64,000 nucleotides of DNA from a virus: positions 16,004-80,003 of IMG/VR virus record IMGVR_UViG_3300033153_009397; one strand, 5' to 3'. Below, piece by piece: positions 2,277 through 45,686 of this stretch. Each line of letters opens with the position of its first letter. The first letter of the stretch is position 1. The position numbers and the translations under genes are program-made. The notes under the pieces are model-generated. The model saw nothing but the letters and a program-made list of their open reading frames with translations. It ran no database searches and was not told the DNA's origin.

Positions 2277-3122
2277 ATGACTATTATATATGGAAATTTC
2301 TATGATGTAATGTATGATAAAATAAACTGTGAATCTATTGACCACCTTATAACCGACCCGCCATTTGGTATAGAATTAAAAAGTAATCAAAGCTCGTACA
2401 ATAGAAAAGATGACAATGTAATAGGAGGATATATTGAATGGAGCAAAGAAGATTATTTTTCAAATATGAATGCGTTGCTATCTAGTGCTGCACGAGTATG
2501 CAAATCTACTGCTAACATAATAATATTCAGTAGCTGGAATAATCTACCTATCTTTTTCAAAGCTTTCAACAATAGATGGATAAAAGATATCTATAACTAT
2601 CAAGGAAATATAGTATGGAAATACCAATTTGGAGTAAGAAACAATTCAATAATAACGGGTCATTATCATATTCACTGGTTGACTTTTAGAACAAACAAGA
2701 AACCTATTTTTAATAGAGACTGTAGATATCCTCCAATAAGTGAGGAAAATAAAAGATTATCATATGCTGACAGATACAGTGTGTGGAACATAAAAAAGAA
2801 ATATAGACGAAATGTAAGAAAATATACCACAGAACTCCCATCGGAACTATGTGATAAGCTTATTCAATATTTCACTAACGAAGGGGATATAGTACTAGAC
2901 CCATTTGCTGGAGCTGGCAATATTGCTGTTGCAGCCAAAAAATATGAAAGATTGCCATTATCTATAGAACTTAACCATGAAGTTATACCTTACCTTATGC
3001 ACAAAGTATATGGTAAATCAATATTTGAGGGATGGCCCACTTCAAAAATAAAATCTTATTTAGAAAAAAATCCTATACAACATTCAAAACAATTGGAGGA
3101 CAGACAATGTTTAATACTATAA
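2277..3122 (+). CDS. DNA methyltransferase, N6-A/N4-C beta class
   Basis: Catalytic DPPF motif N-terminal and SAM-binding VLDPFAGAG C-terminal. Confidence 0.9.
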   Translation: MTIIYGNFYDVMYDKINCESIDHLITDPPFGIELKSNQSSYNRKDDNVIGGYIEWSKEDYFSNMNALLSSAARVCKSTANIIIFSSWNNLPIFFKAFNNRWIKDIYNYQGNIVWKYQFGVRNNSIITGHYHIHWLTFRTNKKPIFNRDCRYPPISEENKRLSYADRYSVWNIKKKYRRNVRKYTTELPSELCDKLIQYFTNEGDIVLDPFAGAGNIAVAAKKYERLPLSIELNHEVIPYLMHKVYGKSIFEGWPTSKIKSYLEKNPIQHSKQLEDRQCLIL

Positions 3123-30599: not shown

Positions 30600-30878
30600 T
30601 CATTTTTCAATGATTTTGTTGAACCTTAGTTTATTGTCGAAGGTACGTAGAATAATTGTGTCTTGAAGAAGTTCAAAAATAAGGGAAGAGTATCGTTTAC
30701 CTCTGAAATAAGTATGAGGGTTCATAGTGAGAAATGCTTTTTTCAATTCTTCATGAGTTAGAGAACCCTCTCTTCGAAGAATAAAAATAATACTATTAAT
30801 AGCAGCACGTTTATGGATAAACTCCATATTTCTACTAATATAAACTTCATTATTTTTGTATGGCAAAAAAATCATCAA
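30600..30878 (-). CDS. Putative winged-helix protein
   Basis: In-operon, downstream of polB. Confidence 0.5.
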   Translation of the reverse strand: MMIFLPYKNNEVYISRNMEFIHKRAAINSIIFILRREGSLTHEELKKAFLTMNPHTYFRGKRYSSLIFELLQDTIILRTFDNKLRFNKIIEK

Positions 30879-33800
30879 CTTGTGTATTAATTATTTTCTT
30901 TTTAGGCATTGTATCTTTTACTGGTTGTATTAATTGTTTAAAAACATTATTGAGTCTTTTGATATATTCTTGGTAGTCTAAATCCCTTTTTTTGGCTATT
31001 TCTATGGGTTCCACGCCTAGTATTTTATTATCCATGGACGGTTTATCAATGACGTAAACAAAGTCGATAAATGAGCCTTTTCTCATGATGATATTTTCAT
31101 CAATAGGATGTTTACTGGATGATTGAATAGCTTCAACTAATTTTTTGGCAGCACGAACATGAGGAGCTCTTTGTTGAGTATATTTAGAAAGAGGACGAGA
31201 AAGCTGTTTAGTAATCTTATAATCTTCAATACTGCCATGTTTTAATCGTATACCTCTAACAAATTTATCTCTAATGGCAATAAGATTGAAGTAAAGTTCT
31301 TTAATTTGCTCGGGACGGTTAAATTTTTCAATGGCTGCTATCCACTCATTGAAAGCTTGCTGTATGATGAGAGGGGTATCTCTCTTCTTGCCAACTAATC
31401 CTTTAATTGTTTTATGAAGCTTACCGTCTTTTTGTTCAATAACTACATAGTTTTTCTTTTTATGCAGTACAAGTATTAAGCCCGTTTCTTCTATATCTAT
31501 GTCTACATCATATTTTTCACTAATTTTTGGCTGCATTGTTTCTTTAAAGTGATTTACATCTAAACCTTTAATGAAAACACTGTCGGTATTATGTACAATT
31601 AGTTCTCCCACCCCAGCATGAAAATGATGGTTGTAAGTTGTAAGGTCGTATACATTTTCTTCTTCTTCTCTTAATAGTTCTATTTTTTTTATTTTTGTTG
31701 AGGAGTATCTTTGGTTGTTATTTGATATATTAAGACGAAATATATCTAATTTATCTCTTCTGGTATTAATAGAAACTTTATATCCTATTGACTTGGCGAG
31801 AAAATAGAGTCCTTGAGCTCCTATTTTACCTTTAATATCACATCTTAAGGAACCACTTTTTTTATCTCCATCCCCTCGATAATATCCTTCAAAGAAGGCT
31901 TTTTTTATCTCCTTTTTGCTATTAAGTATAATTGAAGGTATTTTCTTGTAACCATCTTCTGTGTATAAACTTAGATAGATTTTTACCATATCTTTTATGT
32001 TGCCTTTTGGTATAACTCTATATATTTTCGTACTCTTTCTGATATCTATGATTTTGAAGTCAGTAAAATGTCCGTAGACTTTGAGTAATTTCTTTTTTAA
32101 TTCCTTCATTAGTGGTAAATTATTTTTTCCTATATACCAAGAGTATTTTGTTCCCCATTTGGTATTATAAATACCACAACTACCATCGGCAAGAAATAAA
32201 CCCATTATCCAAGCTTCGTCTTTGGAAATATAATTCATGTTACTTTTTATTTCTGGAAAAGAGTGTAAAAGTTTATCACCAATTAGTATCTCAGAAGGTC
32301 TAACTATATTATTATTGGGTTTTAATAATGAATGGTCTTCTGTAACATCTACACAACCAGTATGAGTTAGTATTCTATAAATTTTCTTTTTGGTTTTGTG
32401 TTTATGTATTTTTAGAATTCTTGTCCAACCTTTTTCTGTCCACACTCTTAGATTTTCTCTAAATTCATGGTTTTCTAATTCTTTTATTGGCATGATTTCT
32501 ATGTAACCATCTAAGTTGGTTATTATTGGTGTATCTGCTGTTACACTATCTCCATAGAATACGGTTAAACCTTCTGCTTCAAATGTTTCTTTGATGCCAA
32601 TAAGGGTATCTCGTCCAGTGGCTGTTACACACTCTGCAACTGGACCGCAGAAAAAGGGGAAAGATTCAAAACCAGCAACTCCATAACTGGCATTGATGAT
32701 TACTTTTAGCCATTGTTCAATAACTTTGGCTATAGCATTAGTATTTTTCATGGGCTTATAATAGTAAACTCTTGCATCCTTGATGAAACCAACAACTGAA
32801 GGAAAGAGACCAATGTATTTGGTACAAACTTGATGATAAGCACCTTCAGAAACTTTTATTTTATTATCTTTACATTCTTCATGACCACAATTCATTGTAG
32901 TATAACATAAGTTATGGTTTACAATCATGGTGGGATAAAGAGAGGCTACATCAGCAACAATAATATCGTAGTGTACTCCTTTTTCCGGCTCAATGACTAT
33001 TGCTCCTCCATATCTCTTACCAGTGGTTGAAGCGGAAAGTATTTTTCCTATTGCACTTAATTCAATACGAGAAATGGCTAACATGTTGTAGAAATGAAGG
33101 GCACGATAGAATATATTTGATATAATAGCCGAAACTTGTCGTCTAACAGCACTTTCTACTGTTAAATGACCCATCCTCATTGCCATACAAATAAGTTTCA
33201 TTACTACTTCATTGTCAAAAGTAGCCAGTTTTAAGCAAAGAGATGTATCTTGAGCATTGTAATATAGTAATTCTTGCATACAGAGGTCTGTTACTCTTCC
33301 TTCATAGTCATATTTTGTCTCTCCTATGAGTTCTTTTGATACATCATCAAGAGAGTTTTGTTTGTATTTGTTTTTAAAAGCGTAATTTTTAATGCTTGGA
33401 TTAGAAAAGAATGGATAAAGGTCAATGAGGAACTTGTCTTTCAATCCTTTTACTATGCGGTCTTTTTTCTTATATGTTCTATCTTCATCTTCTGGTCGCA
33501 TAAATCCCCATATTCTACTATCATAAATTCCCAGATATTTCATTCTGGTGACAATATAGGGAATATCAAACATATCAAGGTTATATCCTACCACGAATTT
33601 TTGTTTCATAGCAAATAAGAATATCATAAATTTCTTTAGGAGTTCCACTTCATTATCACATATTCTAATAAGATGATTAGGATGTTTGAGGTTAAATTTT
33701 TTGACTTTTATTTTTCTGACCTCATCTGATATAACGAATGATAGGTGATGAATATCATCTCCTTTGTACCAACTCAAGGTAATGGAAGAAATAGGTGAAA

Positions 33801-34479
33801 CCGCCTCAAACGAATTTAAGGCATCTCTAAAGTTAAAATCTATTTCGATATCTAACGCTACCAGATGCTCCTTAAATTGTGGGAACGGAGTAGTGAAGAT
33901 ACTCATCATCCAATCATACATTTTTTTTGGTAGTTCTTTTTTGTATCTTTCTATTTGTTTTAGATTATAAATAGGGTGATGTTTTACATGGTACCAATCA
34001 ATCTCTGGAGATATAGTTGATATATTATAAGGCATACCAATTGTAATATTATGTTCTATGTTAAAGAGGTCGGCATATTTTATATGGTTGTTATATACGA
34101 AAGTAGGAAGCAAAAGTTGACTTAGTCCAGTTCCAGTATCTCTATCTGTAACATATCTAGGTTGAGTAACTATAACTTTGGTTACCTTCATTTTTTTTCG
34201 TGTTCTGGGATGAATTTTATCTACTTCTTCACATCCTATAACTTTTTTATTGTTCCAATATGGTTCTCCCCGTTCATTTAGTTTAACATATCCACATTCT
34301 CTTACTTTTTCGATGTTTAAGAGCTGTGATTCTTTTAATCTGGTATAAAAATAGGGTCGGTGAGATTTTCCATGCGGTATCTCGGTTAATTTTCCAGTTT
34401 CATCATTCCAGAAGATTAATACTTGTCCCGTTCTGCTTCCTTCTTTATTATATTTAGTGCTTATCAGCCATTCGGTCAT
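30850..34479 (-). CDS. polB: Family B DNA polymerase (archaeal type) with an intein
   Basis: Exo motifs LDIE, GYNLDMFD, YNAQD; polymerase motifs DVASLYP, KVIINASYG, YGD|TDS, KKNY, KGL. Confidence 0.97.
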   Translation of the reverse strand: MTEWLISTKYNKEGSRTGQVLIFWNDETGKLTEIPHGKSHRPYFYTRLKESQLLNIEKVRECGYVKLNERGEPYWNNKKVIGCEEVDKIHPRTRKKMKVTKVIVTQPRYVTDRDTGTGLSQLLLPTFVYNNHIKYADLFNIEHNITIGMPYNISTISPEIDWYHVKHHPIYNLKQIERYKKELPKKMYDWMMSIFTTPFPQFKEHLVALDIEIDFNFRDALNSFEAVSPISSITLSWYKGDDIHHLSFVISDEVRKIKVKKFNLKHPNHLIRICDNEVELLKKFMIFLFAMKQKFVVGYNLDMFDIPYIVTRMKYLGIYDSRIWGFMRPEDEDRTYKKKDRIVKGLKDKFLIDLYPFFSNPSIKNYAFKNKYKQNSLDDVSKELIGETKYDYEGRVTDLCMQELLYYNAQDTSLCLKLATFDNEVVMKLICMAMRMGHLTVESAVRRQVSAIISNIFYRALHFYNMLAISRIELSAIGKILSASTTGKRYGGAIVIEPEKGVHYDIIVADVASLYPTMIVNHNLCYTTMNCGHEECKDNKIKVSEGAYHQVCTKYIGLFPSVVGFIKDARVYYYKPMKNTNAIAKVIEQWLKVIINASYGVAGFESFPFFCGPVAECVTATGRDTLIGIKETFEAEGLTVFYGDSVTADTPIITNLDGYIEIMPIKELENHEFRENLRVWTEKGWTRILKIHKHKTKKKIYRILTHTGCVDVTEDHSLLKPNNNIVRPSEILIGDKLLHSFPEIKSNMNYISKDEAWIMGLFLADGSCGIYNTKWGTKYSWYIGKNNLPLMKELKKKLLKVYGHFTDFKIIDIRKSTKIYRVIPKGNIKDMVKIYLSLYTEDGYKKIPSIILNSKKEIKKAFFEGYYRGDGDKKSGSLRCDIKGKIGAQGLYFLAKSIGYKVSINTRRDKLDIFRLNISNNNQRYSSTKIKKIELLREEEENVYDLTTYNHHFHAGVGELIVHNTDSVFIKGLDVNHFKETMQPKISEKYDVDIDIEETGLILVLHKKKNYVVIEQKDGKLHKTIKGLVGKKRDTPLIIQQAFNEWIAAIEKFNRPEQIKELYFNLIAIRDKFVRGIRLKHGSIEDYKITKQLSRPLSKYTQQRAPHVRAAKKLVEAIQSSSKHPIDENIIMRKGSFIDFVYVIDKPSMDNKILGVEPIEIAKKRDLDYQEYIKRLNNVFKQLIQPVKDTMPKKKIINTQVDDFFAIQK
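31588..32547 (-). mobile_element. Intein (320 aa) with a LAGLIDADG homing endonuclease, inserted in PolB motif C
   Basis: YGD|SVTADTP...VTEDHSL...GLFLADG...EGYYRGDG...VYDL...IVHN|TDS. Confidence 0.95.
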
Positions 34480-34744
34480 TTTTTATACTCTCCATTTTTA
34501 GTCCAGCTTTATCCATCTGGAATTTAACGAATCTTACATGATTTTTATGGCTTATTTCTTCTTTTGTACAGTGGTCTATTATCTGCAACCGTAGTTCTTC
34601 CAGAAAGTCCATTAGTGGTAGTTTATCCATTGGTAAAAACCCATTTTCGTCAAACTCATTTAGTTGTGTTGCTGCAGCAAGTAGAATACTGTAGAACATG
34701 TTCGCTTTTTCTTTACCAAATATTATTTTTATTTCTTCTTCCAT
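34454..34744 (-). CDS. Hypothetical protein
   Basis: Lies between the methylase and polB. Confidence 0.6.
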   Translation of the reverse strand: MEEEIKIIFGKEKANMFYSILLAAATQLNEFDENGFLPMDKLPLMDFLEELRLQIIDHCTKEEISHKNHVRFVKFQMDKAGLKMESIKNDRMADKH

Positions 34745-35564
34745 ATTTATTTAACCTCTTTTTTGTTGCTTCTACATATGATTTGGCTATATCGCAGCCA
34801 TAGAAGTTGCAGCCTAAATGATTAGCTACTAAGGCAGTTGTTCCTCCACCCATAAATGGGTCATATACTGTAAAATTTTCTTTTCTATCATAATCCCAGT
34901 GAACTTTTATGCATGTTTCTGGGAATTCTGGAGGAAATTCTGTTGGGTTGAATCTTTTGACGTTTTGATTGTATTTTAATATGTTTATATCCCATACATC
35001 TCCTCTATCTCTGAATACTTTACCATACATCTCCATTTGTCTTTGTCTGGAAGCTTCATATCTTTTATCCATCAAATAGGCCTTACTATATTCTGTTCCT
35101 ATTCGGGATTTATCTAATTTGTGGTCACCTTTAGCAAACATGAATACATATTCTTTATATATCGAAAACTTTTTTACATATTTTGTCGGGGCGATAGGTT
35201 GCTTATTAGGCATAAACCATATAATATCTTGAATGAATTTCCATTCGGAGTGGTCTTCTATTTTTTGTACAATTGTTCCCATTGCCTTAAAATATGTAGA
35301 AATCTCTTTGGTATTGGGTTTGAGGTTTAAAAACATTAATGCCCCATCATTGCATATTTTGTCGGTGGGGTGAAGGCTATAAATTATAGTGTCCATCCAC
35401 TCTTGTAAAGGTAAATTATCGCTGGTTGCAGCGTAGATTTTTCCTATGTTATACTGGGGTGAAGTACATATTACATCTACTTTTGGTTTATTGTAAGAAT
35501 GTATCAGCCCGTAGATATAATTATGAAAATCTAAGGCATCATGACATAGAAGTATTTGTTCCAT
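34713..35564 (-). CDS. DNA methyltransferase, probably N4-cytosine (beta class)
   Basis: TSPQY (SPPY-like) and YDPFMGGGT. Confidence 0.88.
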   Translation of the reverse strand: MEQILLCHDALDFHNYIYGLIHSYNKPKVDVICTSPQYNIGKIYAATSDNLPLQEWMDTIIYSLHPTDKICNDGALMFLNLKPNTKEISTYFKAMGTIVQKIEDHSEWKFIQDIIWFMPNKQPIAPTKYVKKFSIYKEYVFMFAKGDHKLDKSRIGTEYSKAYLMDKRYEASRQRQMEMYGKVFRDRGDVWDINILKYNQNVKRFNPTEFPPEFPETCIKVHWDYDRKENFTVYDPFMGGGTTALVANHLGCNFYGCDIAKSYVEATKKRLNKYGRRNKNNIW

Positions 35565-36236: not shown

Positions 36237-39200
36237 TTAGATGTAATAATTGGGGTCAGAAACAAGTCTCTTAAAAATAAGTTCTCCATCTGTATTTTTA
36301 TGCCAAGTTATACCAAAATGAGAGAGAAGATTAGGGATGGCTCGAAGTTCGCCAAGAAAGTCTCTTCCAAGATAAAGTTCTTTCTTAGCTCTGTTCTCAG
36401 TAAGCTGTTCATGTTTCTCAAAGTATTTTACAAATCTAACAAAGCGGTCATCTAGCAGAGCACCAAAACGTAACCATGCTTTGCCTATTTTAATGAACTC
36501 TTTATTCATGCCACGACTAGAGATACCTCTGTATTCTCGCATTTTTGCTATGTGGGGGATAGGGACATCTTCATCCATTTGAATAATTTCCATGACTTTA
36601 TTATAAGAGATACCCCAACAATAAACCAAGCTCTGTTCCTTAGCTGATGGGTCCTTTACTCTTCCTATTGTTTGATAAAACGTTTGATGCATATTCATTT
36701 TCTCTAACATATCTGATAGTTCAAAGGCATTCAAGTCTTGAAAAAGTTCTTCTTCATGATAATATCTTGCTAACCATAAATGGCTACCTTTGGGGGGAGC
36801 TGGAGGACATGCAGCAATCATTATTCTTTTCTTGCTTCCTACTCCTACAGTTTTATCTGACCTATACCATGTTACTTCTAAGTTATAAGGAAGATGTTTT
36901 TGTCTTTTCAGTGTCTGTATAAGACGATAAATAAACCTTTTATTGGGAAGTACTAACATGACATTCTCTGTTCCGTGAGCTTCGCAGACCATGTTGACAA
37001 ATTTTATTAAATCTTCTATGTGTTTTTGACTATTAGGGTGTTTGTTTAGCTGTTTAGCTGATACATTTCTAACACCACAAATAACTAACTGATTATCACA
37101 AGTTTTTCTGGGGTCTCCTATGACAAATCTCTTAAAATCTACTCCAAATACATCGCTTATCTTGGCTAAAGGCATAGTAGCATCAGTAACAATAATTTGG
37201 TTCTTGAAATGTTCTACAGTCATTTTTACAAACTGTTTAGTCATGTCTATCTTGGGAGTGGTTGTGAAAACTACTGAAGCTGGTTTATCTGGTGTAGGAG
37301 TGCTTTGCATCCACCAAGATTCATTCTGTAATAATACTAACATTCTTTCCAGACTATTAAGGTGAATATTAAAGTCTTTAGCATACTTACTAATCATTGC
37401 ATAATAAGAGAAGAAGTTTTCTTTATAATTACTTAACTCGGAAGGGGATAAAAAATTGCCTATTTTGTAAGTAGTAGATTTCTCAAAGATACCATTCAAA
37501 GCCGCCCTTCTAATAAACGGGTCAAATTTATTTATAAATTCGTCTGCTAGTTCAACTATCTTATTTATAGTTTGATTGTTATATTTCTCTATGAGCCTAG
37601 CTACATCTTGTGAGAGTTCATAAGTGTAATCAAAGAATTTTTCTCCCACTTCATTCTGTTCATATACAGTTATTTCAAGGGGAGAAGCTTGAACAAGCTT
37701 GGAAATTTCATCCATGAAAACGATATCAAAAGAGTTGTATAAGACACTGACAAATTCTTGAGCTTCTTTTTCTACGTTACTAAGAAGTGAGGTAAGCTTG
37801 TCATATGTTATGAATACTATGTCATAATCCATAATCCTTTCCATGATTGTTCTGTAAGCACACTTACCTACCTTTTCTCCTATCTGATACAAAGCATGGT
37901 CATGTTCAGAGACTATGATAGGTATTGGATATTCTCCTTCTCTATGAGGATACTCAAATACCTCTTCATAATATTCACAGTAACGATACTCGCTACTCCC
38001 CGACTGTGCCACAGCACAAGACGGTTTAGATTGGAACATCATATTTTTCCATTGCACTCCTTCTTCTCCCCAATTAGGATTTTCTTTTTTCTTCTTCTCT
38101 AAATCCATGAGAGTAAATCTAAGTTTTAAACAAGCCTTCATATTAGCTGATAATACTGCTCCTTCTATACTCTCTCCATATATATCATATATAAGCCTCA
38201 TTGCATCTACAAATACTTCTCTTGCTATTCTGTTGGTAGGGGTTACTACTAACATTCTCTTGCCATGAAATGTTGCTGCTCTAATAAGACTGGTAGTAAA
38301 ACCAGCTCGAGTAGTCTTTATGGCTTCAAAGTTGGTGGTAGGATTTCTAACTAACTCACTGACTAATGATGTAATAACTTCAAACTCATGTTCTGAGGAA
38401 GCAAACTTCTCTTTCTCTACAGTTACTACTGATTTGGGTTTGGGAAACATACAATAACTTCTTCTACATTTGGCTGCATCTTTTGGTGTACAGCAATAGA
38501 ATTCACTTTTTTTATCTTGCATTTTATCGCAGTGTGGTGGCATATCTGGTTGGTCTGGATTTCCATATGTCCATGCTACAAGTTGTATCTTATCTTTGTT
38601 TTGTGGAGTATTATCTTCCTCGTCATTTACTACAAATCTTATAAACAATGCACATTCATCTGGCGTATATCCCTTCCCTCCAAAATCGTCATACCTCATT
38701 GCTCCTAAATACCTAACCAGTATCATTCTCATCCAGTGGTCTCTTCTGTTTATCCAAGCATTTCTTATGCATGGAGGTGTATCAAATGGGTCTGTTCTAT
38801 TGACAAGATTAGTCATCTCTTGTAGTAATGCTTTTTGTTCATCTGTTAAAATGGTATTTGGTTCTGGTACCATCACTTCATATTCTGCATGGCCTTTTCC
38901 TTGATACGGTCTTCTTACTACTATCTTTGCTGTTTCATGCATTACCTCTTTGATTATATCTTCAAACTGGAATTCTTTATAGTATAGAGGCTTTATCTTT
39001 AGATATTTATATTTACTATATAGTATTGTTCTTGTAGCATTCATTTCTCCGTTGTCGTATTCTACTGGGACACAGTAGAATGTTTCATATGATAGCTTGG
39101 TATATACCGTGTATGGAAGTCTGTAGACGTGTCTTCCTCTCTTGTACAAAGAGGTATCAATGATAATGAGGTATTTGATATTATCTAATTCTATTATTTT

Positions 39201-39785
39201 TCCTATTCCTTTTTTGTTTCGTTTATTCTTTGGTAAAGGAGAGTTCTTGGCATTAAGCATAAAGAAACCTTTACATCTGCTACTACATCTATGTATCTTC
39301 CCCATTCTGGCATATTTTTTCTGTTGAATACATTCTTCTAATATTCCTTTTTCTCCCCATAATATATCTATAAAGTCTGCCTTATCTACCTCTTTATGAT
39401 ATCTTTGTACTCTATACATTCCTTGTCCAGTAATGTATGATGTCCACTTGTATTCTGGATGTTCTTTATCCCATTCATTCCAGAAGTGTATGGCTGCTCG
39501 TAGTTTTAATTCCCTTATTTGATTAACTGTATATTCTTCTTCGATGTATGGAGTTAATATTTCTACATCTGTATCTATTACAAAATCAGTATGACCATGT
39601 CCTTCTAAGGTTCTAAACAATGGCTTGTTGGTATTTATGCCGTATCTATCGAAGATATCTTGCCATTGATATATCTCTTCTCCTCCTTCCTCTTTTCTTC
39701 TTCCCATCGATATAGCTTTAGCACCATCTAATAGCCTAAGCACAACATCATTGATTTGTTGTAGTTTATTTTCTACCTCGGTCAT
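36237..39785 (-). CDS. Primase-helicase fusion (AEP catalytic domain, PriL-like Fe-S domain, SF2-like helicase)
   Basis: IDTD and YRLPYT (AEP-like); PPCI...HWMR...PPHCDKM...C (PriL-like); KTTRAGFTT, FMDEIS, TDAT, QTIGR (helicase). Confidence 0.75.
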   Translation of the reverse strand: MTEVENKLQQINDVVLRLLDGAKAISMGRRKEEGGEEIYQWQDIFDRYGINTNKPLFRTLEGHGHTDFVIDTDVEILTPYIEEEYTVNQIRELKLRAAIHFWNEWDKEHPEYKWTSYITGQGMYRVQRYHKEVDKADFIDILWGEKGILEECIQQKKYARMGKIHRCSSRCKGFFMLNAKNSPLPKNKRNKKGIGKIIELDNIKYLIIIDTSLYKRGRHVYRLPYTVYTKLSYETFYCVPVEYDNGEMNATRTILYSKYKYLKIKPLYYKEFQFEDIIKEVMHETAKIVVRRPYQGKGHAEYEVMVPEPNTILTDEQKALLQEMTNLVNRTDPFDTPPCIRNAWINRRDHWMRMILVRYLGAMRYDDFGGKGYTPDECALFIRFVVNDEEDNTPQNKDKIQLVAWTYGNPDQPDMPPHCDKMQDKKSEFYCCTPKDAAKCRRSYCMFPKPKSVVTVEKEKFASSEHEFEVITSLVSELVRNPTTNFEAIKTTRAGFTTSLIRAATFHGKRMLVVTPTNRIAREVFVDAMRLIYDIYGESIEGAVLSANMKACLKLRFTLMDLEKKKKENPNWGEEGVQWKNMMFQSKPSCAVAQSGSSEYRYCEYYEEVFEYPHREGEYPIPIIVSEHDHALYQIGEKVGKCAYRTIMERIMDYDIVFITYDKLTSLLSNVEKEAQEFVSVLYNSFDIVFMDEISKLVQASPLEITVYEQNEVGEKFFDYTYELSQDVARLIEKYNNQTINKIVELADEFINKFDPFIRRAALNGIFEKSTTYKIGNFLSPSELSNYKENFFSYYAMISKYAKDFNIHLNSLERMLVLLQNESWWMQSTPTPDKPASVVFTTTPKIDMTKQFVKMTVEHFKNQIIVTDATMPLAKISDVFGVDFKRFVIGDPRKTCDNQLVICGVRNVSAKQLNKHPNSQKHIEDLIKFVNMVCEAHGTENVMLVLPNKRFIYRLIQTLKRQKHLPYNLEVTWYRSDKTVGVGSKKRIMIAACPPAPPKGSHLWLARYYHEEELFQDLNAFELSDMLEKMNMHQTFYQTIGRVKDPSAKEQSLVYCWGISYNKVMEIIQMDEDVPIPHIAKMREYRGISSRGMNKEFIKIGKAWLRFGALLDDRFVRFVKYFEKHEQLTENRAKKELYLGRDFLGELRAIPNLLSHFGITWHKNTDGELIFKRLVSDPNYYI

Positions 39786-44578: not shown

Positions 44579-44892
44579 CTGTTTTTTTATCAGAACTTCC
44601 CCCCCAAAAGCAGTTTGCTGTAATGAAATTGTTTATGGAGGGGGAAATTCCTCTTTTTAAGGGTGAAGAAGTTATTTTACCAGATATGATTTCAGCCCGT
44701 TATGTTTGTGCTGATTGTGGAAAGTTTGTTATTCCTACTTTTTATTTAGATGATATTGTTAGTATAGCAAAACGGGTTAAATGCCCTCATTGTTCTGGTA
44801 ATATGAGCTTGTATCTTATGGGTACTGAACTTCAACAAGAAGTTAAAAGAATAAGAAAAGGTATTCAACGTAAGATTTATGATTTCTTTTGA
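44575..44892 (+). CDS. Zn-ribbon protein
   Basis: CADCG...CPHCS. Confidence 0.7.
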   Translation: MTVFLSELPPQKQFAVMKLFMEGEIPLFKGEEVILPDMISARYVCADCGKFVIPTFYLDDIVSIAKRVKCPHCSGNMSLYLMGTELQQEVKRIRKGIQRKIYDFF

Positions 44893-45686
44893 AGTCTCAT
44901 CTTTGCTTCTCTTCTTTCTTTTTCTGTGAGTGCAAAGATAACTTTTTTGGTTTTACTCTTTCTAATAAGTGGTTTCTTTAGAAATGGAAATATAATAAAG
45001 ATGACCATTAATATTATTCCTATTCCAATCATAACAAAAAAGGTTTTGTTATTTTGAATGAAGGAAACAAAGTTTTCTGAGCCAAAAAATCTGTTAGCAA
45101 TTAAAATTACTAACATGGTAATGTTATAAGCAGTCACGGCAGATTTAATAAAGTCATTAATAATTTTTTTGAAGATTTCACTATTTTTTTCTTGTCTAAA
45201 TATCCAATCTCTTACTTCTGCTCTGAATTCTGTTGCCATTTTTATTTCTGCTAACTGGTCTCTTCTGTAGATTACTTGATTTTCTTCTACTCTGCTTACT
45301 CTATTCTGTAAAATAGTTTCTGATTGTTTTTTAATATAGTTTTCTACTTGTTGTAAAAGGTTAGGTAATCTTAAAGGCTTAGGAAGAATAGACCTAGCTC
45401 CAGCAGCAATGGCTTCTTCTTTTCTTGAAGAAGCATGACCAGTAATAGTGACTATCTCAGCATCGGGGTTAATCTTTATTATCTCTCTTGTAGCTTCTAC
45501 TCCATCCATAATAGGCATATGTATATCCATCAGCACGATGAAGGGGTCGTATTTTTTGTACATATCTATAGCTTCTGAACCGTTAGTAGCTCTGATAATC
45601 TTATAGTCTTTTAGATAATCTTCTACAATGTCCAGTAGTTCAGTGTCGTCATCGACGACTAATATAATAGGATTTTCAGAAGCCAT
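44877..45686 (-). CDS. CheY-like receiver domain fused to a coiled coil and two TM helices
   Basis: ILVVDDD, LMDIHMPIMDG, TITG, LPKPL; two C-terminal hydrophobic helices and a basic tail. Confidence 0.85.
   Translation of the reverse strand: MASENPIILVVDDDTELLDIVEDYLKDYKIIRATNGSEAIDMYKKYDPFIVLMDIHMPIMDGVEATREIIKINPDAEIVTITGHASSRKEEAIAAGARSILPKPLRLPNLLQQVENYIKKQSETILQNRVSRVEENQVIYRRDQLAEIKMATEFRAEVRDWIFRQEKNSEIFKKIINDFIKSAVTAYNITMLVILIANRFFGSENFVSFIQNNKTFFVMIGIGIILMVIFIIFPFLKKPLIRKSKTKKVIFALTEKERREAKMRLQKKS

Follow-up and report, generated by a model that had tools for sequence, protein, structure and literature searches.

The intein in the family B DNA polymerase (PolB) of Mimivirus was described in 2005 as an element of the archaeal pol-c type, whose closest archaeal relative at the time was only 24% identical (PMC549080). 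Inteins are frequent in the polymerases of giant viruses (PMC5784728; PMC6950457), and their spread across domains is mediated by viruses (PMC10710043). The one related feature mentioned by Rambo et al. (bioRxiv 10.1101/2021.07.29.454249) is the Hint domain of a ribonucleotide reductase, and our literature search found no description of the pol-c subfamily considered here in archaeal tailed viruses or in Asgard PolB. We have analyzed an intein of this subfamily in the polB gene of a tailed virus, encoded in a stretch of 64,000 nucleotides (hereafter the window) that covers bases 16004-80003 of the 80,003-bp IMG/VR record IMGVR_UViG_3300033153_009397. We consider it highly probable that this is a class 1 pol-c intein with a LAGLIDADG endonuclease, which was gained horizontally by an ancestor of one subclade of the virus family and has long been resident there.

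The closest described systems share the insertion site, between YGD and TDS of polymerase motif C. The Mimivirus intein (in PolB R322) resembles the window's intein in this site, in having Ser1 and Thr+1, in its LAGLIDADG endonuclease and in a phylogeny discordant with that of its extein. It differs in residing in a Pol-delta-like polymerase of an amoebal giant virus, in its length of 351 amino acids (aa), in ending with KN and in belonging to a separate clade. Other giant-virus PolB inteins (Pithovirus LCPAC304, P0104; pandoraviruses, PMC6950457; Phycodnaviridae, Iridoviridae and Mimiviridae, PMC5784728) are of the same subfamily and 43-53% identical to the window's, but their viruses have eukaryotic hosts and their exteins are Pol-delta-like. 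Asgard PolBs (P0043 and P0047 from metagenome-assembled genomes (MAGs) of Promethearchaeota; P0090 of Heimdallarchaeaceae) have inteins with the same site and architecture, 47-51% identical to the window's, in exteins that are archaeal like the window's (43-45% identical over the 250 residues preceding the insertion). However, these are cellular chromosomal genes and their inteins form a clade of their own (100/87; support values are ultrafast bootstrap / SH-aLRT), which is not sister to the window's clade. Finally, the euryarchaeal PI-PkoII (2cw7) and Tsp-GE8 Pol-2 and the haloarchaeal P0310 and P0311 have the same pol-c allele and fold (Foldseek E 1.6e-13 for 2cw7), but are remote in sequence, larger (439-537 aa) and placed on a long outgroup branch.

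The polB gene and position of the intein

The minus-strand open reading frame (ORF) at 30850-34479 encodes P0001, a 1209-aa precursor and the sole family B polymerase of the whole record (Pfam DNA_pol_B, 3.5e-39; DNA_pol_B_exo1, 1.1e-18). Its residues 645-964 constitute a 320-aa intein (P0002; 31588-32547, minus strand), which is stop-free on translation, starts with SVTADTPII and finishes with GELIVHN. The flanking sequences are ...VFYGD on the N-terminal side and TDSVFI... on the C-terminal side, and the insertion is exactly YGD/S...HN/TDS. The N-extein (residues 1-644; 32548-34479, minus strand) contains the exonuclease domain, intact polymerase motifs A (DVASLYPT) and B (KVIINASYG) and the YGD half of motif C. 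The C-extein (residues 965-1209 and the stop codon; 30850-31587, minus strand) has the Thr of TDS, which is the +1 nucleophile, as its first residue. Both intein-extein junctions are crossed by an uninterrupted reading frame. Insertion between YGD and TDS defines the pol-c, or position III, allele (PMC549080), and the window's intein is of this type. Because the insert splits the catalytic motif C, the polymerase would be active only after splicing. A sequence-only reading of the window had placed a Ser-starting LAGLIDADG intein at this site; its coordinates proved exact, though the gene is on the minus strand.

Predicted splicing and endonuclease activities

All residues needed for splicing are intact: Ser1, T69-E-D-H72 of block B, V299-Y-D301-L of block F, H319-N320 and Thr+1. 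Alignment of the intein with nine homologues showed that S1, T69, H72 and D301 are invariant and that H319 and N320 are nearly so. The two LAGLIDADG motifs are MGLFLADGS, with the acidic residue D121, and FFEGYYRGDGD, with the acidic residue D226; the invariant endonuclease columns of the same ten-row alignment are G116, F118, G122, G221 and D226. Pfam detected Intein_splicing in the intein alone above the cut-off (1.6e-10), and a match to LAGLIDADG_3 below it (21.2 vs 22.5 bits). Using phmmer, I-DmoI was aligned to intein residues 105-278. Based on this match and on conservation, the nested endonuclease domain covers approximately intein residues 105-280 (31708-32235, minus strand).

The AlphaFold2 model of the intein has a mean pLDDT of 91.6 and a pTM of 0.90. 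The top Foldseek matches of the model are endonuclease-bearing inteins, namely TliVMA (7qsu, E 2.7e-17), PI-PfuI (1dq3), PI-PkoII (2cw7) and PI-SceI, and its middle domain superposes on I-DmoI with a TM-score of 0.64-0.71 normalised to the target. The features of a class 1 intein are all present (nucleophiles at positions 1 and +1, Thr-x-x-His, C-terminal His-Asn and the HINT fold), as are those of a monomeric two-motif LAGLIDADG enzyme, i.e. two helices with acidic ends and a doubled alpha-beta-beta-alpha-beta-beta-alpha fold. From the residues, their conservation and the modelled fold we infer that this is a canonical class 1 intein with a LAGLIDADG homing endonuclease, capable of both splicing and cleavage.

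With these residues and established intein chemistry, the precursor would be translated whole and Ser1 would undergo an N-O acyl shift, helped by Thr-x-x-His of block B. The resulting ester would be attacked by Thr+1, and cyclisation of Asn320 with the help of His319 would release the intein. Joining of the exteins would rebuild YGDTDS and yield an active polymerase. During co-infection by two related viruses the freed endonuclease could cut the intein-free polB site, and the intein would be copied into this allele in the course of its repair (homing).

An archaeal-type polymerase in a family of tailed viruses

The best solved relative of the N-extein is Sulfolobus PolB1 (1s5j, E 3.8e-69); matches to Thermococcales PolB (about 1e-24) and Pol delta (about 1e-17) are weaker, and T4-like phage polymerases reach 22-27% identity at most. 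The closest PolB homologues of P0001 are P0003 and P0005 (71% identity), P0243, P0244 and P0245 (51-54%) and P0246-P0249 (36-43%), followed by the 'DNA polymerase I' of Bathyarchaeia and Nitrososphaerales at about 30%. In the PolB tree the window's clade is sister to TACK PolB1 together with Asgard PolB, and its members are found on IMG/VR contigs of 71-86 kb. Among the other predicted products of the window are a large terminase, a portal protein, baseplate J, a Ro60/TROVE protein and a SNF2-type helicase. By sequence, this is a small family of tailed viruses of 70-86 kb with an archaeal PolB1-type replicase, which agrees with the earlier description of the polymerase as archaeal-type in a tailed virus. 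The host of the virus could be a TACK or Asgard archaeon. The terminase matches only distant phages (about 24% identity), and a search for tRNA genes found none.

History of the intein within the virus family

The full intein is present in P0001, P0003 and P0005. In P0243 the pol-c site is occupied by a 216-aa version (residues 657-872) from which the first of the two LAGLIDADG motifs is missing; its splicing blocks are retained and are 57-69% identical to those of the full inteins, so that it looks like a decay stage of the homing cycle. An uninterrupted (G/A)GDTDS was found in P0244, P0314 and P0246-P0249, and also in the IMG/VR loci L002 and L005; the PolB match in L001 is too short for an intein. 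Most members of the tailed-virus family are without the intein. Loss of the intein in P0244 and P0314 was considered and dropped, since the underlying extein node has a support of only 0.63.

The residue at position -3 to the insertion site (the YGD codons are at 32548-32556 of the window) is Tyr in all four intein-bearing alleles, and intein-free alleles of the family all have GGD or AGD there. Co-conversion of the flanking sequence when the intein invaded, with a YGD allele as donor, could explain this split; shared ancestry would account for it equally well.

In pairwise comparisons of P0001, P0003 and P0005 the inteins are 64-73% identical and the N-exteins 67-72%. Because this divergence matches that of the polymerase, the intein is an old resident and no recent arrival, inherited with the gene since the common ancestor of the three. 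Divergence in step with the polymerase resembles vertical descent, and would also be seen if the intein had kept splicing and lost mobility, an inactive endonuclease being retained since its imprecise deletion would destroy motif C. The loss of part of the endonuclease in P0243 and the LAGLIDADG_3 match under the cut-off point in the same direction. Nevertheless, we regard an immobile intein as unlikely. Both LAGLIDADG motifs with D121 and D226 are present and conserved in homologues, the endonuclease core is modelled at high confidence and superposes on I-DmoI, and between P0001 and P0003 the intein (73% identity) is conserved like the N-extein (71%) and better than the C-extein (53%). The history that we favor would begin with entry by horizontal transfer, probably from a donor on the archaeal side, into the ancestor of one tailed-virus subclade; the intein would then have been inherited within this subclade, its endonuclease decaying in one lineage.

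The inteins of P0005 and P0243 form a group (100/99) and their exteins do not, which is a mild hint of intein exchange within the virus family. P0005 also has a second intein of 410 aa at the pol-b site in motif B (INA/C...THN/SYG), after the equivalent of P0001 residue 597; the window's polB gene has the pol-c intein only. At least two intein alleles of PolB are therefore present in the family.

Relationship to the Mimivirus intein and to other pol-c inteins

BLASTP comparison with Mimivirus PolB R322 (P0051, 1740 aa) aligned intein residues 1-320 to residues 1053-1403 with 47% identity (E 1e-94). This is the range given for the Mimivirus intein by Ogata, Raoult & Claverie 2005 (PMC549080). 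Six long blocks that the sequence-only reading had named as common to both inteins were all found in this alignment: SVTGDTPII, VWTAKGW, HKTVKKIYRVLTHTGCIDVTEDHSLL, DGSCGSYQTKNGIKYSW, RCDIKGKISAQCL and FHAGVGEMIV. By sequence comparison the similarity is far beyond chance.

The proposed specific resemblance to Mimivirus did not hold. A Promethearchaeota PolB intein is equally close (48% identity, E 4e-94; range 48-51%), and identity to the window's intein is flat across host types: 47-53% for Mimivirus, 49% for Pithovirus, 53% for P0045 and 54% for P0028 and P0032. The exteins, compared over the corresponding segments, are 25-45% identical. Members of the giant-virus/Asgard pol-c group are 43-54% identical to the window's intein, with E values of 1e-81 to 1e-94, while haloarchaeal and TACK pol-c inteins are 24-37% identical; the haloarchaeal P0310 aligns locally over 115 residues at 24%, and PI-PkoII gives an E of only 7e-6 over a stretch of 60 residues. 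On this evidence the intein is of the giant-virus/Asgard pol-c type and not an ordinary euryarchaeal pol-c intein; clustering with the latter would have spoken against the earlier reading.

Trees of inteins and exteins were built separately. For the inteins a quick tree and a FastTree tree of 195 sequences were followed by an IQ-TREE analysis of 72 inteins under LG+C20+F+G4 by PMSF. The haloarchaeal pol-c inteins and the TACK PolB1 intein P0250 are far outside an ingroup of 69 sequences (96/97). The window's clade (100/100) is sister to the inteins of P0100, P0129 and P0048 (96/93), which reside in unassigned archaeal-like PolBs with about 880 extein residues that form a long branch beside the archaeal PolB1 clade. 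A wider group of 20 rows (87/84) adds the Asgard inteins, the GGD-type P0028, P0032 and P0080 and a clade hosted by type II topoisomerases. The Mimivirus clade comprises 12 rows (97/96) and excludes the window's intein, which is neither within nor sister to the R322 clade. Both full-length similarity and placement in the tree put the window's intein in the giant-virus/Asgard-type pol-c subfamily, with its nearest pool, judging from the sequences, on the archaeal side.

Could the intein nevertheless have been exchanged directly and specifically with Mimiviridae, the two being mutual close relatives? The full-length identity of 47%, the long common blocks, Ser1 and the insertion site would all agree with this. 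However, dozens of other inteins are no more distant than that of Mimivirus (P0028 and P0032, 54%; P0045, 53%; Promethearchaeota, 48-51%), the Mimivirus clade excludes the window's clade, which is paired with P0100, P0129 and P0048, and the Mimivirus intein terminates in KN and the window's in HN. We therefore consider such an exchange very unlikely.

Even less probable is ancient vertical inheritance, that is, a pol-c intein already present in the ancestor of archaeal and eukaryote-like PolBs and lost many times. The site is identical across very distant PolBs, and no stretch of the enzyme is more conserved than motif C (PMC549080), as this explanation would have it. Against it, outside inteins are 47-54% identical to the window's and the corresponding extein segments only 25-38% (local alignments), so that inteins are about twice as similar as their exteins; the closest PolB relatives are without the intein, as are all but about 1% of sampled archaeal genomes; and the intein and extein trees are incongruent. 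Since the two trees disagree, horizontal movement between very different polymerases is required. To this extent the earlier interpretation is supported, but the comparisons showed no direct transfer between this kind of virus and giant viruses and no special tie to Mimivirus. An artefact, whether through chimeric assembly or because a piece of a giant virus had been taken for a tailed virus, can practically be dismissed, as the only sign of it is the GC content of the intein, slightly below that of the exteins (0.293 vs 0.334 and 0.314), while the window encodes a large terminase, portal and baseplate J, the frame is unbroken through both junctions, and P0003 and P0005 have the same intein at the same site of the same PolB on separate contigs, with a neighbouring response-regulator gene common to both.

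Several points weigh against the history of horizontal gain and long residence as we propose it. The intein tree has a polytomy as its backbone, and the window's intein is grouped with the Asgard-hosted ones at a support of only 87/84. An IMG/VR scan seeded with the closest outside relatives, P0100, P0129 and P0048, returned mostly giant-virus bins, via intein patterns. Sampling is strongly skewed to giant-virus metagenome bins.

Size and hosts of the pol-c subfamily

With the intein region as query, 2508 matches were obtained from 5.8 billion proteins. When 1.84 billion cluster representatives were scanned exhaustively with HMMER, 2319 matched, 1639 of them with an E value of 1e-10 or lower and 529 with one of 1e-30 or lower. 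Since the cluster of the Mimivirus intein is just one among at least 529 that reach the stricter threshold, it has for this reason too no special tie to the window's intein. Among 192 extracted homologous inteins, 182 are inserted between xGD and TD(S/C). To classify their hosts, a PolB profile was made from intein-free sequences, all polymerases were aligned to it and a tree was built. It placed 124 of the 182 pol-c inteins in a Pol-delta-like clade with Mimivirus, Pithovirus LCPAC304 and eukaryotic Pol delta, and six in Asgard PolBs (Promethearchaeota, Heimdallarchaeaceae); a few are in unassigned archaeal-like PolBs and the remainder are fragments. Of 47 IMG/VR loci with the intein pattern, 21 bear names of giant-virus MAGs, and others are on contigs of up to 1 Mb. 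Among cellular genomes, the 301 sampled from Asgard phyla included four with an intein match at E<=1e-10 (50-52% identity in two of them), and the 301 sampled from Thermoproteota included three, where the match was full-length with 38% identity in two cases and an N-terminal fragment in the third. The subfamily is common among the giant viruses that infect eukaryotes; in cellular archaea it is rare, at about 1% of sampled genomes.

IMG/VR scans with the N-extein or the intein as a single protein returned nothing, the loci being recovered only with alignments as query. One metagenome scan yielded intein-free or distant PolBs and did not recover close relatives of the window's PolB. A scan of genome contigs with narrow patterns, which is not a census, gave 12 loci.

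Inteins about 50% identical to that of Mimivirus in the archaeal-type polymerase of a tailed virus narrow the gap around the Mimivirus intein. They show a single family of mobile elements whose range extends from the giant viruses of eukaryotes to Asgard archaea and to tailed viruses of archaeal type. The virus family shows stages of the homing cycle together, i.e. empty sites, full inteins and a decayed intein, and could be a natural model in which to follow how inteins behave in archaeal viruses. The general understanding of intein function is unchanged. It is tempting to see tailed viruses with PolB1-type polymerases, possibly infecting Asgard or TACK archaea, as a bridge by which the intein moved between archaea, their viruses and giant viruses via YGDTDS, but we think this rather improbable; if true, it would imply an encounter of archaeal-virus and giant-virus DNA within a single cell, such as that of a protist harbouring archaea or grazing on them.

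Neighbouring genes and other observations

The response-regulator receiver protein is encoded at 44877-45686 (minus strand) and is 51-71% identical to its counterparts on the contigs of related viruses (P0316, P0317, P0318). Because beyond the virus family it has only generic bacterial-type homologues, it is a family-specific viral gene. A 1182-aa ORF adjoining polB (36237-39785, minus strand) has no Pfam family and was unmatched in 50,697 phage records; searches with its protein gave a single weak match among 151 genomes of Asgard phyla and no match among 151 of Thermoproteota. Two N6/N4 DNA methyltransferases are encoded, one at 2277-3122 (plus strand) and the other at 34713-35564 (minus strand), just upstream of polB on the same strand with one 96-aa ORF between.

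Inteins 37-41% identical to the window's (only 26% for L014) were found at loci L009-L016 in bacterial MAG bins, which include Sediminibacterium, Bacteroidales, Patescibacteria and Acetobacteraceae. These are probably mis-binned viral contigs.

In four giant-virus-type PolBs (P0006, P0007, P0008, P0049) motif C contains two inteins in tandem. Of these, the first ends with HN before TD, and the second follows directly, starting with Cys and ending with HN before SNYIHF; the two insertion sites, YGD/TD/S, are two residues apart. Close relatives of the window's intein also occur in type II topoisomerase/gyrase-like proteins (P0009, P0013, P0172, P0189, P0223, P0225, P0234, P0235). They are inserted between D(Q/A)D and TDG, a motif resembling GD/TDS, and form a single clade (100/100), which suggests that a PolB intein may have jumped to a look-alike site in a topoisomerase gene.

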